The translations under genes were made by a program, and so were the position numbers. Positions 44 through 34,986 of a stretch of DNA of 64,000 bases are shown in pieces; within the stretch, counting starts at the first letter, position 1; every line of letters begins with the position of its first letter. Source of the stretch: Escherichia phage FL12. The stretch lies in the sequence record PP400786; one strand, written 5' to 3'. The notes beneath the pieces were generated by a model, which saw nothing but the letters and a program-made list of their open reading frames with translations, searched no databases and was not told the DNA's origin.

Positions 44-115
44 TGGCCCTGGGTGGAATTGAACCACCATCTGGCGATTATGAGTCGCTTGCTTGAACCT
101 TCCAGCTACAGGGCC
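44..115 (-). tRNA. tRNA-Ile (anticodon CAU)
   Basis: Reverse complement folds as a cloverleaf: acceptor GGCCCTG/CAGGGCC, T-arm GGTGG-TTCAATT-CCACC, anticodon loop CTCATAA, 3' CCA encoded. A CAU anticodon would read Met; assigned Ile (AUA-reading, lysidine-type) from T-even phage knowledge. Confidence 0.8.
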
Positions 116-121
116 TTGATA

Positions 122-194
122 TGCTGATTGACGGAATCGAACCGCCGACGTCCTCATTACAAGTGAGGTGCTCTACCTACTGAGCTAAATCGGC
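122..194 (-). tRNA. tRNA-Thr (anticodon UGU)
   Basis: Cloverleaf on reverse complement: D-arm GCTC-AGTAGGTA-GAGC, anticodon stem CCTCA/TGAGG with loop CTTGTAA, T-loop TTCGATT. One C-A mismatch in acceptor stem; CCA not encoded. Confidence 0.8.
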
Positions 195-201
195 GAAATT
201 A

Positions 202-288
202 CGGAGGCGATAGGATTTGAACCTATGAGTCGCCGGAGCGAATGCCGGTTTTCAAGACCGGTGCATTAAACCACTCTGCCACGCCTCC
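202..288 (-). tRNA. tRNA-Ser (anticodon UGA)
   Basis: 87 nt with long variable arm; acceptor GGAGGCG/CGCCTCC, anticodon stem-loop CCGGT-CTTGAAA-ACCGG, T-loop TTCAAAT. CCA not encoded. Confidence 0.85.
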
Positions 289-290
289 AG

Positions 291-364
291 TCTCCGTGGC
301 AGGATTTGAACCTACGACATTCTGCTCCCAAAGCAGACGCTCTACCAAACTGGGCTACACGGAG
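291..364 (-). tRNA. tRNA-Pro (anticodon UGG)
   Basis: Acceptor CTCCGTG/CACGGAG, anticodon stem TCTGC/GCAGA with loop TTTGGGA, T-arm GTAGGTTCAAATCCTGC. CCA not encoded. Confidence 0.8.
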
Positions 365-376
365 TAAATTAAATTT

Positions 377-448
<72 letters not shown>

Positions 449-454
449 AAACTT

Positions 455-541
455 TGGTACGAGAAGTGGGACTCGAACCCACAAGGAAATCATTCCGCAG
501 CATTTTAAGTGCTGTGCCTTTACCAATTTGACCATTCTCGC
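455..541 (-). tRNA. tRNA-Leu (anticodon UAA)
   Basis: 87 nt with long variable arm; anticodon stem CAGCA/TGCTG with loop CTTAAAA, T-arm GGGTTCGAGTCCC, 3' CCA encoded (plus-strand tgg at 455-457). Confidence 0.85.
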
Positions 542-542
542 G

Positions 543-615
543 CTGGGAATAAAGGACTCGAACCTTTGCATCTAGCAGTCAAAGTGCTATGCCTTACCAA
601 CTTGGCTAATTCCCA
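543..615 (-). tRNA. tRNA-Gln (anticodon UUG)
   Basis: Acceptor TGGGAAT/ATTCCCA, anticodon stem TAGCA/TGCTA with loop CTTTGAC, T-loop TTCGAGT. Separated from tRNA-Leu by 1 nt. CCA not encoded. Confidence 0.8.
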
Positions 616-681: not shown

Positions 682-709
682 TTAATAATAACAAATAATT
701 CTTAAAGCA
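682..709 (-). promoter_or_regulatory. Putative MotA-dependent middle promoter upstream of the tRNA cluster
   Basis: Minus-strand TGCTTTAAG (MotA-box-like TGCTT) followed about 12 nt later by TATTAT. The same 28 nt recur at 60639-60666 upstream of gene 31. Confidence 0.55.
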
Positions 710-1217
710 AATTAAACATTTTAACGGTCGGCAAAACAATTTCTTCTTCTATATAAGAGTATTTAACACTCTCAACTACACGCAAAAAATCATAATCATA
801 ATACTCAGAAGCATTACCTAAAATATTAATAAGTCCTTCAAGCACTTTATTACCATTCACAAAGAATAAGTCAAATACGCGTTCTTCGTCTTCTTCGGAT
901 TTATTACCAAGGTCAACTTCTATATCAAAGACCTTTTTAATGAATTCTGGATAAAGTTGTTCTGAGAACAGTCCTTCAACCAAGTATTCATAAATAAAAA
1001 GCGATTGCTCGCTGAACAAGCCATTACCACAATAACGTTCAGCTTTAGTACTAGAATGTCTACTTTTAAACTTCTTTAAAAGATATTGAAATTGTAAGAT
1101 TTCATGCTCTTCTACGCCAAACAGTGTTTTAGTTTTATAGTTGTCACCATCATTTTCCCAGGTAGTGACATCAATTACGTAACCCTGTGGAATTGTAGTA
1201 CCTAAACAAATATTCAT
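702..1217 (-). CDS. Hypothetical early protein, 171 aa
   Basis: ATG-initiated ORF, start overlaps stop of upstream ORF (ATGA). Last gene of a four-ORF operon between the internal-protein genes and the tRNAs. No motif recognised. Confidence 0.6.
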   Translation of the reverse strand: MNICLGTTIPQGYVIDVTTWENDGDNYKTKTLFGVEEHEILQFQYLLKKFKSRHSSTKAERYCGNGLFSEQSLFIYEYLVEGLFSEQLYPEFIKKVFDIEVDLGNKSEEDEERVFDLFFVNGNKVLEGLINILGNASEYYDYDFLRVVESVKYSYIEEEIVLPTVKMFNLL

Positions 1218-1507
1218 TTGCTCACCATATTAATGTAAGTATATTCAATACATTCAAGACCCAAAGGATTCTTGAAAATATCATATTCAAGAGGACCTTT
1301 TTCCGTTTCAATAAAGAAATCAAAATTTACTGTATTAAATTTACGGTCTTCCTTCACTAATTTAACCTGAGAAGATGAACGGTCAATGTAAACCTTTTCA
1401 ACTTCAAAACATGTTAAAATGCCATAATCATCAATCAAGGCTTTAGCCGCGTCTTGATCATATTTATATCCATTTTCAATGGATGATACTTTAGCATAAA
1501 GAATCAT
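1214..1507 (-). CDS. Hypothetical early protein, 97 aa
   Basis: ATG start 2 nt after the stop of the upstream ORF; same operon. No motif recognised. Confidence 0.55.
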   Translation of the reverse strand: MILYAKVSSIENGYKYDQDAAKALIDDYGILTCFEVEKVYIDRSSSQVKLVKEDRKFNTVNFDFFIETEKGPLEYDIFKNPLGLECIEYTYINMVSK

Positions 1508-1509
1508 TA

Positions 1510-1890
1510 TCAGCCTTCATCAACAATAGTATGAGTGTGGGCATTTACAATTTGCCACCAATCAAAGCGATTAGAACCATACATCGGTTTGTTTTCATTT
1601 TCTTTGATAATATCACGGAGTTCATCTTCGGTAGCGGCTTTCGCGATTAAATCAGCATATCCACCACGAGGATAATAATTATCACCTGCAAAAAGTAAAA
1701 AGTTTGGTTTAATATTATTAAACTCTTCAAGAGTAATAACTGTTCCACCAGGTTGAACAATCTCTACATAACTATATCCTAATTTTTGAGCAGCATCTAC
1801 TGCTTCAAGCAGGGTATCATGAGCCCATCCAATTTGGCAATCTGGCTTTTCAGATGGATTAGCCTGATAATCCGCGTACACTTTATACAT
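1510..1890 (-). CDS. Hypothetical early protein, 126 aa (ORF track shows a TTG-extended 137 aa form)
   Basis: First ATG at 1890 is preceded by AAAGGTGA; the track start at 1923 is TTG. Protein begins MYKVYADYQ. Function not recognised. Confidence 0.6.
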   Translation of the reverse strand: MYKVYADYQANPSEKPDCQIGWAHDTLLEAVDAAQKLGYSYVEIVQPGGTVITLEEFNNIKPNFLLFAGDNYYPRGGYADLIAKAATEDELRDIIKENENKPMYGSNRFDWWQIVNAHTHTIVDEG

Positions 1891-1891
1891 T

Positions 1892-2077
1892 CTATTCACC
1901 TTTAGAAATTTTATCCATAACAATAGCGATTAAACCAATTAAAAATGCTACTACAAGTGAAAACGCATTTTCTGCTGTAGTTAATAATCCGCATATAAAT
2001 CCAACAAACATTGAAAAACTAAAAGCGGAAGCAGAAATTGCAATAGCAACATTTCGAATTAATTCACAACGTTTCAT
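1892..2077 (-). CDS. Small predicted membrane protein, 61 aa
   Basis: ATG preceded by GAGGAG; two hydrophobic stretches (VAIAISASAFSFSMFVGFICGLL and FSLVVAFLIGLIAIV). First gene after early-promoter cassette A. Confidence 0.55.
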   Translation of the reverse strand: MKRCELIRNVAIAISASAFSFSMFVGFICGLLTTAENAFSLVVAFLIGLIAIVMDKISKGE

Positions 2078-2100
2078 TTTATTCTCCTCGGCAGTTGATA

Positions 2101-2135
2101 GGGTAATAATATCACTACCCTATTTAAAAGTAAAC
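2101..2135 (-). promoter_or_regulatory. T4-type early promoter (cassette A) with inverted repeat around the -10
   Basis: Minus-strand GTTTAC (-35-like), ~18-nt spacer ending in TG, then TATTAT; inverted repeat AGGGTA...TACCCT brackets the -10. Confidence 0.6.
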
Positions 2136-2147
2136 GGTTTTTATAAA

Positions 2148-2456
2148 CTATTTTATTCCGCGTGATGCAATTGTGTTCTGTCGTTTAACACCAGTTTGTT
2201 TAAAGTCATGGTCGTCAATTTGATCGGTACGAGCAACTCCGAATGATGATTTGATTTTAGCTTTAGATCCTTTAGTTATAGAAATAAACATCTCGGAAGC
2301 CCCTTTCTTAAAGTCCGAGGCGATTACTTCAACGCCGTTCTTAGCAAGTGACTTCAGAATTGCCTCCGCATACTCATCGTCAAGACTCGCCTGAGTATTA
2401 ATAACGAATGTCTTTGGCGCAGCCGCTTCATTGATAAATTCTTTAAATGTTTTCAT
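2148..2456 (-). CDS. Candidate capsid-targeted internal protein, 102 aa
   Basis: N-terminus MKTFKEFINE-AAAP resembles the T4 internal-protein capsid-targeting sequence (MKTYQEFIAE); basic C-terminus; own early promoter and AAGGA Shine-Dalgarno. Confidence 0.65.
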   Translation of the reverse strand: MKTFKEFINEAAAPKTFVINTQASLDDEYAEAILKSLAKNGVEVIASDFKKGASEMFISITKGSKAKIKSSFGVARTDQIDDHDFKQTGVKRQNTIASRGIK

Positions 2457-2485
2457 TTTATTTTCCTTATTTTCCTAATTAATTT

Positions 2486-2525
2486 TGATGAGGTAATAGT
2501 ATCACAACCCTATTTAAAAGTAAAC
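2486..2525 (-). promoter_or_regulatory. T4-type early promoter (cassette B)
   Basis: Minus-strand GTTTAC, ~18-nt spacer ending in TG, then TACTAT; shares a 39-nt identical leader (2467-2505) with cassette C (2800-2838). Confidence 0.6.
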
Positions 2526-2798
2526 TCATTTTAAATAAATTGCGTATTTTTTATAACCCGCTGACTCATGACGAAGACCCTTATCATTAGCAAAACGCTC
2601 AATGTTGTTAATTTGATTCTGATCAAGTTCAGAGATGTCAAACACGAAAAAGTTACGTTTGTTACCAACTGTTATATAGTCAGTTAAATCAATATCATAT
2701 AGGTAATTGATGTCAGCAATCAAAGTCTTGACAGCTTTGCTAATTTTTACTTTTTCGTTAAAAGCAGCTTCAGCAATAAATTCTTGATACGTTTTCAT
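2526..2798 (-). CDS. Candidate capsid-targeted internal protein, 90 aa, at the ipI position next to 57B
   Basis: N-terminus MKTYQEFIAE-AA matches the T4 capsid-targeting sequence exactly; predicted prohead-protease cleavage after Glu10. Whether the body is IPI itself or a variant cannot be decided without alignment. Confidence 0.7.
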   Translation of the reverse strand: MKTYQEFIAEAAFNEKVKISKAVKTLIADINYLYDIDLTDYITVGNKRNFFVFDISELDQNQINNIERFANDKGLRHESAGYKKYAIYLK

Positions 2799-2819
2799 TT
2801 TATTTTCCTAATTAATTTT

Positions 2820-2858
2820 GATGAGGTAATAGTATCACTACCTCATCAGTACGTAAAC
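2820..2858 (-). promoter_or_regulatory. T4-type early promoter (cassette C) with 9-bp inverted repeat
   Basis: Minus-strand GTTTAC, 17-nt spacer ending in TG, then TACTAT; perfect inverted repeat GATGAGGTA...TACCTCATC (2820-2847) brackets the -10. Confidence 0.6.
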
Positions 2859-2870
2859 AACTTTGTGAAA

Positions 2871-3567
<697 letters not shown>

Positions 3568-3568
<1 letters not shown>

Positions 3569-4293
3569 TATAGTACCTTTAGTGTATTTTTAATTTTAGA
3601 AAAAAGTTCTTCAAGAGAACCATCGTTTGTAATTACTAAATCGCCATCACGAATTGGCAATCCAGCTTCTGTAATATGTGTATCATTGGATTTTTGACCA
3701 GGACGAACTACATGAATTACTGTAGCATCCATCGCCCTAGCCGCATCCATTTCATGATCTTGACGAGTATCAGGAACGATATAATAATCATAACCCGAGT
3801 TAAATTTATCAAGATAATCTAAAGCAAATAATTTTACCCAGTACATGCGGTCGAAGTTATTAACAATCAAATCCGTACCTAGGGCTTGCATCAGACGACG
3901 GACTGACCATTGATCTTCAATATTATTTATAACGTCAGCAATTTTGTTAAATGCTACGAAATTAACTGATTCTTTTCCTTCGTCATCAAAAACAAACACA
4001 CCTTTAATTGGGCTTTTACCATTAAGATAGCAAAATGCTTGTTCCATAATCGTGATTACTTCTAATTTAGTCAGATTTAAATTAGTCTCACGATCATAGT
4101 CAATTCCTTCAAACTCTTTACGAGTTAAGCAAGGATAGTCAGTGTTTGCTGCAAATACTCCCCATGCATAAGCCAATGCGTCCTTAATAGGACCAGCAAG
4201 TTGGTATTTAACTGCAGAATAATTGCTCATGATAAAATCAGCAGTAGTATCTTTTCCACTACGCTTTACACCGCTTAAAAAGATTAGTTTCAT
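3568..4293 (-). CDS. 1: Gene 1 deoxynucleoside monophosphate kinase
   Basis: 241 aa from the first ATG (GAGGAG Shine-Dalgarno); P-loop GVKRSGKDT near N-terminus. The track's 254-aa form starts at TTG. Confidence 0.9.
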
Positions 4294-33083: not shown

Positions 33084-33508
33084 TGCTTCTGATCCCTGAA
33101 ACTCATGAATTAGTTCTCGAGAATGTCGAAGCACTTATTCCTGAAGCACAGGGTCGCTTTGACGAATTGTCTTCTGCTTTAAATAAAGACGATATAAATA
33201 CAATTGTCGAGAATATGCTTGATGATGAAACTGATTTAGCGGTTGCATTAGCTTCTATTAATGAAAATATGCCGTTAAATGAATTTATCGTTAAACATGT
33301 TTCTGCCCGTGGTGAAATTACTCGCACTAAAGATCGCAAAACCCGCGAACGTAATGCATTTCAAACTACCGGGTTGTCTAAAGCAAAACGTAGACAAATT
33401 GCTCGTAAAGCTACCAAAACGAAGATTGCCAATCCAGCAGGTCAATCTCGTGCTCAGCGTAAGCGTAAAAAAGCTCTTAAACGCCGTAAAGCATTAGGAT
33501 TAAGCTAA
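33083..33508 (+). CDS. 68: Gene 68 prohead core protein
   Basis: 141 aa, basic C-terminus; synteny. Confidence 0.85.
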
Positions 33509-34146
33509 TGAATGAACCCCAATTACTAATTGAAACTTGGGGTCAACCTGGCGAAATTATTGATGGCGTGCCAATGCTTGAATCTCATGATGGAAAAGAC
33601 TTAGGTTTAAAACCGGGTTTATACATCGAAGGAATATTCATGCAAGCGGAAGTTGTCAATAGAAATAAACGTCTTTATCCAAAACGTATATTAGAAAAAG
33701 CGGTAAAAGACTATATTAATGAGCAAGTTTTAACTAAACAAGCTCTCGGAGAATTAAATCATCCTCCACGCGCTAATGTTGACCCGATGCAAGCCGCTAT
33801 CATTATAGAAGATATGTGGTGGAAAGGAAATGACGTATACGGACGAGCTCGTGTTATTGAAGGTGACCATGGTCCTGGAGATAAATTAGCAGCTAATATT
33901 CGTGCCGGATGGATTCCAGGAGTTTCTTCTCGTGGATTAGGTTCATTGACTGACACAAATAAAGGTTATCGTATCGTAAACGAAGGATTCAAATTAACTG
34001 TAGGTGTTGATGCAGTATGGGGTCCAAGTGCTCCAGATGCATGGGTAACTCCTAAGGAAATTACCGAATCACAGACGGCGGAAGCCGATACAAGTGCCGA
34101 TGACGCCTATATGGCTCTCGCAGAGGCCATGAAAAAAGCGTTATAA
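33508..34146 (+). CDS. 21: Gene 21 prohead core protease
   Basis: 212 aa; synteny between 68 and 22. Confidence 0.9.
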   Translation: MNEPQLLIETWGQPGEIIDGVPMLESHDGKDLGLKPGLYIEGIFMQAEVVNRNKRLYPKRILEKAVKDYINEQVLTKQALGELNHPPRANVDPMQAAIIIEDMWWKGNDVYGRARVIEGDHGPGDKLAANIRAGWIPGVSSRGLGSLTDTNKGYRIVNEGFKLTVGVDAVWGPSAPDAWVTPKEITESQTAEADTSADDAYMALAEAMKKAL

Positions 34147-34176: not shown

Positions 34177-34986
34177 ATGCTTAAAGAACAACTGATTGCC
34201 GAAGCGCAGAAAATTGATGCTTCCGTTGCTCTTGATAGTATTTTCGAATCAGTTAATATTTCTCCGGAAGCAAAAGAAACTTTCGGCACTGTATTCGAAG
34301 CTACCGTCAAGCAGCACGCCGTTAAATTAGCTGAATCTCATATCGCTAAAATTGCTGAAAAAGCAGAAGAAGAAGTAGAAAAAAATAAAGAAGAAGCAGA
34401 AGAAAAAGCTGAGAAGAAAATCGCTGAGCAAGCTTCTAAATTCCTTGACCATCTTGCAAAAGAATGGCTCACTGAAAATAAATTAGCAGTAGATAAAGGT
34501 ATCAAAGCCGAACTGTTTGAATCCATGCTTGGTGGATTGAAAGAGCTCTTCATTGAACACAACGTTGTTGTTCCAGAAGAATCAGTTGATGTTGTAGCTG
34601 AAATGGAAGAAGAGCTGCAAGAACATAAAGAAGAATCAGCTCGTCTGTTCGAAGAACTCAATAAGCGTGACGCATATATCAATTATGTGCAGCGTGAAGT
34701 GGCATTGAGCGAAAGTACTAAAGATCTGACTGAGTCTCAAAAAGAAAAAGTCTCTGCTCTGGTCGAAGGTATGGATTATTCAGATGCATTCTCAAGTAAA
34801 TTGAGTGCAATCGTAGAAATGGTGAAGAAATCTAATAAAGATGAAAGCACTATTACTGAGAGTATAAATACTCCTGATACTGAAGCAGCCGGACTGAATT
34901 TCGTCACTGAAGCTGTAGAAGATAAAGCTGCACAGGGTGCAGAAGATATTGTAAGTGTATATGCGAAAGTCGCATCTCGTTTCTAA
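34177..34986 (+). CDS. 22: Gene 22 prohead scaffolding core protein
   Basis: 269 aa; Glu/Lys-rich helical scaffold sequence; synteny. Confidence 0.9.
   Translation: MLKEQLIAEAQKIDASVALDSIFESVNISPEAKETFGTVFEATVKQHAVKLAESHIAKIAEKAEEEVEKNKEEAEEKAEKKIAEQASKFLDHLAKEWLTENKLAVDKGIKAELFESMLGGLKELFIEHNVVVPEESVDVVAEMEEELQEHKEESARLFEELNKRDAYINYVQREVALSESTKDLTESQKEKVSALVEGMDYSDAFSSKLSAIVEMVKKSNKDESTITESINTPDTEAAGLNFVTEAVEDKAAQGAEDIVSVYAKVASRF

Follow-up and report, generated by a model that had tools for sequence, protein, structure and literature searches.

Which protein is encoded at the place where phage T4 carries ipI, between trna.4 and 57B? We addressed this question for Escherichia phage FL12 (record PP400786), of which a stretch of 64,000 nt, here called the window, was analyzed. 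The window belongs to a Tequatrovirus and shares 95–97% identity with phages such as N2 and T6 across 24 kb. The original prediction had pointed to a 90-codon open reading frame (ORF) that begins exactly with the T4 capsid-targeting sequence (CTS) and lies directly beside 57B at the ipI position. It had left open whether the product is IPI or another protein of this polymorphic locus. Judged by its sequence, the gene is ip9, one of the alternative cassettes for internal proteins at the ipI hot spot in T4-like phages.

The ORF starts with ATG, and its translation (MKTYQEFIAEAAFNEKVKISKAVKTLIADINYLYDIDLTDYITVGNKRNFFVFDISELDQNQINNIERFANDKGLRHESAGYKKYAIYLK) opens with MKTYQEFIAEAAFNEK. Ip9 of RB15 ("Ip9 [Enterobacteria phage RB15]") is 97% identical to the window protein across its 90 residues, at 100% coverage, and phage VEc74 encodes a protein that is 100% identical. 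PHROG 7673, described as "internal head protein", covered all residues (1–90 of 90) with an E-value of 3.6e-55. With Ip9 as query, tblastn returned 199 matches in phage records. Searches of Pfam, NCBIfam, and PADLOC matched no family, no PDB entry fell below E 0.25 in a sequence-profile search, and similarity to known anti-defense proteins was looked for and not found. In the literature, "Ip9" was found only with unrelated meanings, and the search brought up no virion or injection data on the protein. The gene is reportedly among the alternative internal protein cassettes of the ipI locus that were first described and named by Repoila and colleagues in 1994. Ip9 is already known, has been named since then, and is annotated in many genomes; the window contains no element of a new kind. 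Our additions are modest: a confident fold, homologs outside the T4-like phages in three delivery contexts, and a recombination scar in the junction before ip7.

The original prediction held for both the N-terminus and the position of the gene. Residues 1–10 (MKTYQEFIAE) are identical in 10 of 10 positions to T4 IPII and IPIII, which both open with MKTYQEFIAEA when translated from NC_000866. This is the IPII/IPIII version of the CTS; IPI from the same record differs and opens with MKTFKEFTST (MKTFKEFTSTTTPVSTITEA). 57B/acb1 adjoins the gene upstream on the minus strand, and the surrounding gene order is T4-like. The choice that had been left open is decided in favor of another protein, Ip9. 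When the mature region was compared with T4 IPI, BLASTP aligned residues 1–9 alone (E 0.031), and identity in a multiple alignment was 15%. Hence the protein is not the reference IPI, and this identity was rejected.

Cleavage by the T4 protease gp21 occurs at the motif (L/I)-x-E, after the glutamate. Ip9 has this motif at I8-A9-E10, followed by A11; a second motif of that type, ISE at 55–57, sits within the folded domain. The agreement of the N-terminus with the T4 CTS is not a coincidence. A six-frame scan of the window found CTS-like N-termini on two ORFs only, 2526..2798 and 2148..2456, the second of which is ip7. The N-terminus M-K-T-[YF]-x-E-F is retained in all T4-like homologs apart from a chimera in OLB35, while the remainder of the protein diverges to 72%. 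Since the window encodes gp21 and gp22, the machinery that recognizes and removes the CTS is present; the gp20 portal, gp67, and gp23/gp24 are encoded as well. The role of the CTS and its cleavage are known from work on T4 IPIII (PMC3012670, PMC9391042), and the 10 residues suffice to package even foreign proteins (PMC3012670).

The structure of Ip9 was predicted by AlphaFold2 with an alignment of 26 relatives. The mean predicted local distance difference test score (pLDDT) was 87.8; blocks from residue 21 onward reached 86–97, and the first ~20 residues (CTS and linker) scored lower. The model is compact over residues 21–88, with helices at 21–34 and 60–72 and strands at 42–45, 50–54, 76–79, and 84–88. 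The residues that are invariant or nearly invariant in the whole family (K21, I30, R48, N61, N65, R68, R76, E78, G81, K83, and A86) cluster in helix 2 and the two final strands. The T4-like variants differ in the first half of the protein but hardly at all in the last ~35 residues. A cut between IAE and the following A would leave 80 residues with a mass of 9.3 kDa, an isoelectric point (pI) of 8.2, a net charge of about +1, and 12 lysine plus arginine residues. This calculated charge rules out that mature Ip9 is an acidic DNA mimic, and it fits direct binding to a protein. In a structural search with the model, IPI* was not among the matches listed, and no function could be assigned. The solved fold of IPI* consists of two beta sheets flanked by terminal helices (PMC3012670); the Ip9 model did not show an IPI*-like fold.

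Homologs of Ip9 residues ~20–90 that lack a CTS were found outside the T4-like phages, with 35–60% identity (tblastn E 1e-6 to 3e-23). They matched PHROG 7673 with E-values of 1.7e-8 to 3.8e-27, from profile positions about 17–20 onward. In Kagunavirus siphophages (JSSK01, JSSK01_64; SHAK7858, SHAK7858_0056), the domain forms a protein of ~72 aa, the gene of which is the first after a 480-bp gap and divergent from a helix-turn-helix regulator and a helicase-primase. The Seuratvirus homolog of ~71–74 aa (CDS0075 in KS_A3, an unannotated ORF in ECP2304) lies in a cluster of small accessory genes. Unlike Ip9, the homologs of both groups are free-standing and have neither a CTS nor the context of a T4-type prohead protease. 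The label "internal head protein" on the siphophage homologs is probably wrong and an over-transfer from PHROG 7673.

A third context was seen in Agtrevirus (e.g., SKML-39 gp077, 1252–3234 of its locus stretch), where an Ip9-like module lies near the C-terminus of a phrog_3867 protein of 660–861 aa. In contrast to Ip9, this module is fused to a member of a large virion-protein family and has neither a CTS nor a T4-type prohead protease context. The N-terminal ~190 aa of the phrog_3867 family are conserved across Ackermannviridae, and the remainder is variable, with the Ip9-like module in Agtrevirus. In LIMEstone1, homologs of the N-terminal part (ORF082/081, 2501–4097 of the locus stretch) are annotated as "confirmed structural protein". 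Together with the Agtrevirus module, this annotation is consistent with virion delivery of the Ip9 domain, and the phrog_3867 family of the Ackermannviridae may represent a second system of virion-delivered variable cargo. The N-terminus of the phrog_3867 protein, MATPSFLNFLEE followed by S, resembles an (L/I)xE protease site.

Distant versions with a CTS occurred in other T4-like contigs (MKSFKEYLTES and MKTFQEFLNEA, both in metagenomic contigs, and MKSFKEFVTES), one of them next to genes like nrdB and those of glutaredoxin and topoisomerase. Among 1.84 billion representatives, a profile search gave only 13 proteins at E ≤ 0.001, essentially all of them small phage proteins and the Ackermannviridae fusion; a 991-aa repeat protein with an E-value of 6e-4 was judged to be spurious. 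When 185,579 bacterial and archaeal genomes (one per species) were scanned, a single relative of the domain was found, with 47% identity to residues 17–90. It is encoded at 2460–2681 of JAEWLW010000073.1, a 6.2-kb contig of a metagenome-assembled genome labeled "Bacillota bacterium", and this is probably a phage contig that was binned with that genome. With one relative in so many genomes there is no bacterial reservoir, and from these searches the Ip9 domain looks phage-only.

The gene order of the locus (tRNAs, trna.2/.3/.4, ip genes, 57B, 57A, 1, 3, 2, 4, then 53 and 5 on the opposite strand) matches that of T4; the coordinates of all features are given in Table 1. The cassettes between the two conserved borders vary. 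T4 has ipI only, RB15 has ip5-ip9-ip7-ip8, UFV-AREG1 has ipI-ip9-ip7-ip8, and VEc74 has four genes with sizes like those of RB15. VR7 carries an unnamed ORF, ip9, two further ORFs, and ip6, and Bas37 carries ip5 and an ip6-like gene. By DNA alignment the window is collinear with RB15 over ip9, the junction, and ip7, and it lacks ip5 on the 57B side and ip8 on the trna.4 side. The 1.3-kb region matched 613 phage records; in 47 of these, a single piece spans at least 80% of the region. On this genome comparison, the presence or absence of the ip9 cassette among close relatives marks it as a gene of the non-essential, host-range type. Directly downstream of ip9 lies ip7; for its product, an interaction with GmrSD CLS_011 that was hinted at was not reproducible (Silas et al.).

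The junctions before ip9, ip7, and trna.4 are repeats of ~59 nt with 73–86% identity, one preceding each gene, and the similarity extends over the ribosome-binding site and into the codons of the CTS (repeat families D1 and D2). In the ip9 junction, the second hexamer is surrounded by a perfect hairpin of 13 bp (arms 2820–2828 and 2839–2847 plus an extension), with an RNA folding energy of -17.4 kcal/mol (z = -3.6). At the trna.4 junction, the hairpin is 11 bp long (-12.7 kcal/mol), and its arms are unlike those of the ip9 junction. No stable fold was predicted for the ip7 junction (-3.2 kcal/mol, z = +1.6), which has one arm of the trna.4-junction type and the other of the ip9-junction type. 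From this arrangement, the ip7 junction looks like a crossover scar within the shared loop/-10 segment, a footprint of cassette shuffling. The repeats are obvious substrates for the gain, loss, and exchange of cassettes. The "ip7 protein" of OLB35 (MH992122, 75912–76199) is a 77-aa chimera of an Ip7-like N-terminal part and the last ~35 residues of Ip9, and appears to lack a normal CTS at the annotated start. The occurrence of such an Ip7/Ip9 chimera is consistent with the junction repeats as exchange substrates.

In a scan with the sigma-70 consensus, neither the promoter-like element before ip9 nor the one before ip7 reached the threshold. The element upstream of ip9 presumably functions as a promoter, going by the T4 early-promoter consensus. 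A late promoter (TATAAATA) was not found at the locus; the nearest one on the minus strand lies at 3924–3931, inside gene 1.

Outside the hot spot, the tRNA cluster and the trna.2 homolog are separated by a 171-aa ORF at 702–1217 (minus strand; PHROG 2290, a family of unknown function), which VEc74 also has but which T4 lacks at this place. The tRNA cluster itself (44–615, minus strand) reads Met-Thr-Ser-Pro-Gly-Leu-Gln, with Met at the distal end where T4 has Ile; the cluster of UFV-AREG1 has additional Asn and Tyr genes.

Table 1. Features of the ip9 locus and of the processing machinery in the window, and positions of homologs in the locus stretches of other phages.
Feature	Position	Strand	Basis
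ip9 coding sequence, 90 aa + stop	2526..2798	minus	ORF list, RB15 Ip9 97%, PHROG 7673, VEc74 100%
CTS, Ip9 residues 1–10 (MKTYQEFIAE), ending in the protease motif I-A-E before A	2769..2798	minus	identity to T4 IPII/IPIII
Mature alpha-beta-beta-alpha-beta-beta domain, residues ~21–90	2529..2738	minus	AlphaFold2 model
Upstream ip9 junction	2799..2870	minus	GTTTAC-17 nt-TACTAT element, hairpin, AGGAAA ribosome-binding site; D1 copy 2800–2858
ip9-ip7 junction	2457..2525	minus	D1 copy 2467–2525; hairpin arms mismatched, hybrid of the two flanking types; aligned with RB15
ip7, the other internal protein gene with a CTS, 102 aa, MKTFKEFINEAA...	2148..2456	minus	RB15 Ip7 99%; PHROG 2667 2.9e-41
ip7-trna.4 junction	2078..2147	minus	third repeat copy, D1 2077–2135; TTTACT-17-TATTAT promoter-like site
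trna.4 homolog, conserved border of the hot spot on the right	1892..2077	minus	PHROG 1692 1.5e-34; positioned as in T4 and the RB15 record
57B/acb1, conserved border of the hot spot on the left	2871..3329	minus	Pfam Acb1 2.7e-60; same position as T4 57B
gp21 prohead core protease, expected to remove the CTS	33508..34146	plus	Pfam Peptidase_S77 1.5e-111
gp22 scaffolding core protein, receives CTS proteins	34177..34986	plus	Pfam T4_CASP 1.3e-89
Homolog in JSSK01	2501–2719
Homolog in a further siphophage stretch (L005)	3007–3225
Homolog in KS_A3	2492–2716
Homolog in ECP2304	~2992–3216

From the identity of the gene, its CTS and cleavage motif, the locus with its cassettes, the presence of gp21 and gp22, and the predicted fold, we infer the following course of events. 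The precursor would be expressed from the promoter-like element of the gene, by upstream read-through, or both, and the CTS would guide it to the prohead's gp22 scaffolding core. Cleavage by gp21 after Glu10 would leave the 80-residue, slightly basic Ip9* in the DNA-filled head, from where it would be injected together with the phage DNA. In the cytoplasm, the alpha/beta domain of Ip9* would bind and neutralize a host defense factor that acts on the incoming DNA, most likely a further subtype of modification-dependent (type IV) restriction nuclease. We consider packaging and processing very likely and an anti-defense role likely, and we give a type IV enzyme as target a roughly even chance. 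The course as a whole, with packaging, cleavage, injection, and a block of early host defense, appears rather probable to us. Internal proteins are known as diverse, defense-countering cargo of T-even heads (PMC3012670). Of the GmrSD type IV nucleases, Ip1, Ip2, and Ip3 each inhibit a single, different one, without cross-protection (PMC12373910), and IPIII functions in the cytoplasm without its CTS (PMC9391042). All four characterized relatives of the CTS class (Ip1, Ip2, Ip3, and the Ip6-like Bas37_0260) are inhibitors of type IV restriction. Two points weigh against a simple form of this course: in a published panel of ten ip genes, ip4-10 showed no reproducible inhibition of any of the eight active GmrSD systems, and the CTS-less homologs show that the Ip9 domain can work without injection.

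Alternatively, Ip9 might be an injected inhibitor of a non-type-IV defense or of another early host function, its domain being a general mobile anti-defense module that was given a CTS by the T4-like phages. In favor of this stand the negative GmrSD panel and the occurrence of the mature domain without a CTS, as a small gene in the accessory clusters of Kagunavirus and Seuratvirus and fused in Agtrevirus; these three groups are not known to share the glucosyl-hydroxymethylcytosine (glucosyl-hmC) DNA of T4. Nevertheless, we regard this explanation as unlikely, since every CTS protein characterized so far targets a type IV enzyme and Ip9 was not similar to any known anti-defense protein in the searches made. 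Seuratvirus and Ackermannviridae also carry modified DNA, and a modification-dependent nuclease therefore stays plausible as the common enemy. It is conceivable, though doubtful, that the Ip9 core (PHROG 7673, residues ~20–90) is a widely mobile, phage-only counter-defense module with three ways of delivery: by the CTS in T4-like phages, inside a large protein of a virion family in Agtrevirus, and as a free accessory gene in Kagunavirus and Seuratvirus. The target would then be a defense common to the enterobacterial hosts of all these phages and not a GmrSD specific for glucosyl-hmC, which would explain the negative result for Ip9 in the GmrSD panel.

Two further explanations do without a host target for a packaged protein or without packaging. 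T4 heads contain ~1000 internal protein molecules, the lysines of which contact DNA phosphates (PMC3012670), and Ip9 might be a target-less filler or counter-ion of the head interior that affects DNA condensation or ejection dynamics, with the cassette polymorphism as neutral turnover. The mildly basic mature protein, with its pI and its lysine and arginine content, and the dispensability of ip9 in many relatives would fit this, but the net charge is far below that of IPII and IPIII, and the 35 C-terminal residues are almost invariant among the T4-like variants. Moreover, three other phage families, of which two do without CTS packaging, retain the specific fold at identities as low as 35%, and a filler would not persist as a free-standing accessory gene in siphophages. 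We consider this role quite improbable. The CTS might also be a relic of recombination and Ip9 an unpackaged, ordinary early cytoplasmic protein like its CTS-less homologs. The CTS codons belong to the repeated junction that mediates exchange (repeat D2) and could be carried along passively, and an early-promoter-like element precedes the gene. However, the CTS is intact, in frame, and fully identical to functional CTSs of T4, its cleavage motif is kept, and the diverged but recognizable CTS of distant homologs argues for selection. In addition, the 10-residue CTS alone can package foreign proteins (PMC3012670). We consider a relic very improbable.

Packaged and injected internal proteins, as we propose for Ip9, enter the cell together with the DNA and are therefore the first phage products that host immunity encounters. 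Such effectors form a natural library in the 57B-trna.4 hot spot, where Ip9 is one of several named cassettes. With its predicted fold, its conserved C-terminal half, and its homologs in siphophages and Ackermannviridae, Ip9 offers three independent genetic systems for the search for a target. The siphophage homologs also flag routine annotations as "internal head protein" as probably wrong.

Among the known systems, the RB15 Ip9 locus shares the CTS, the orientation, the ip7 neighbor, and the hot spot from 57B to trna.4 with the window. It differs in having four cassettes, whereas the window has ip9-ip7 only, so that ip9 abuts 57B, and the two Ip9 proteins have three amino-acid differences. 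T4 IPI/IPI* occupies the same slot, belongs to the same size class (95 vs. 90 aa), and likewise carries an N-terminal targeting sequence that gp21 cleaves off, with a presumed role as injected anti-defense protein. The leader of IPI, in contrast, has 19 residues (MKTFKEFTSTTTPVSTITE, followed by A) instead of 10, and its mature region has no detectable similarity to Ip9. IPI inhibits GmrSD of E. coli CT596, whereas no action of Ip9 on any GmrSD is known. IPII (inhibitor of GmrSD-ECOR21) and IPIII (inhibitor of GmrSD-ECOR17) have the identical 10-residue CTS, cut before the following A, but are encoded next to gene e, and their mature sequences are unrelated to Ip9.

Bas37_0260 of phage KarlGJung is, like Ip9, a CTS-bearing cassette in the 57B-trna.4 hot spot, and it inhibits McrBC according to a preprint (bioRxiv 10.1101/2025.11.20.689424). 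Because Bas37 also carries two genes at this locus, we checked whether Ip9 corresponds to this inhibitor. This was rejected, since Bas37 has Ip5 and an Ip6-like protein and not Ip9 and Ip7. Bas37_0260 has 77 aa and a mature sequence unrelated to Ip9, and it (1054–1287 of the Bas37 locus stretch) aligns closely with ip6 of VR7 ("similar to T6 Ip6") rather than with Ip9. On this alignment, it seems to belong to the Ip6 family, which had already been named; the consulted passages of the preprint do not use that name for it. As reported there, Bas37_0260 demonstrates that cassettes of the 57B-trna.4 hot spot can target type IV enzymes other than GmrSD.
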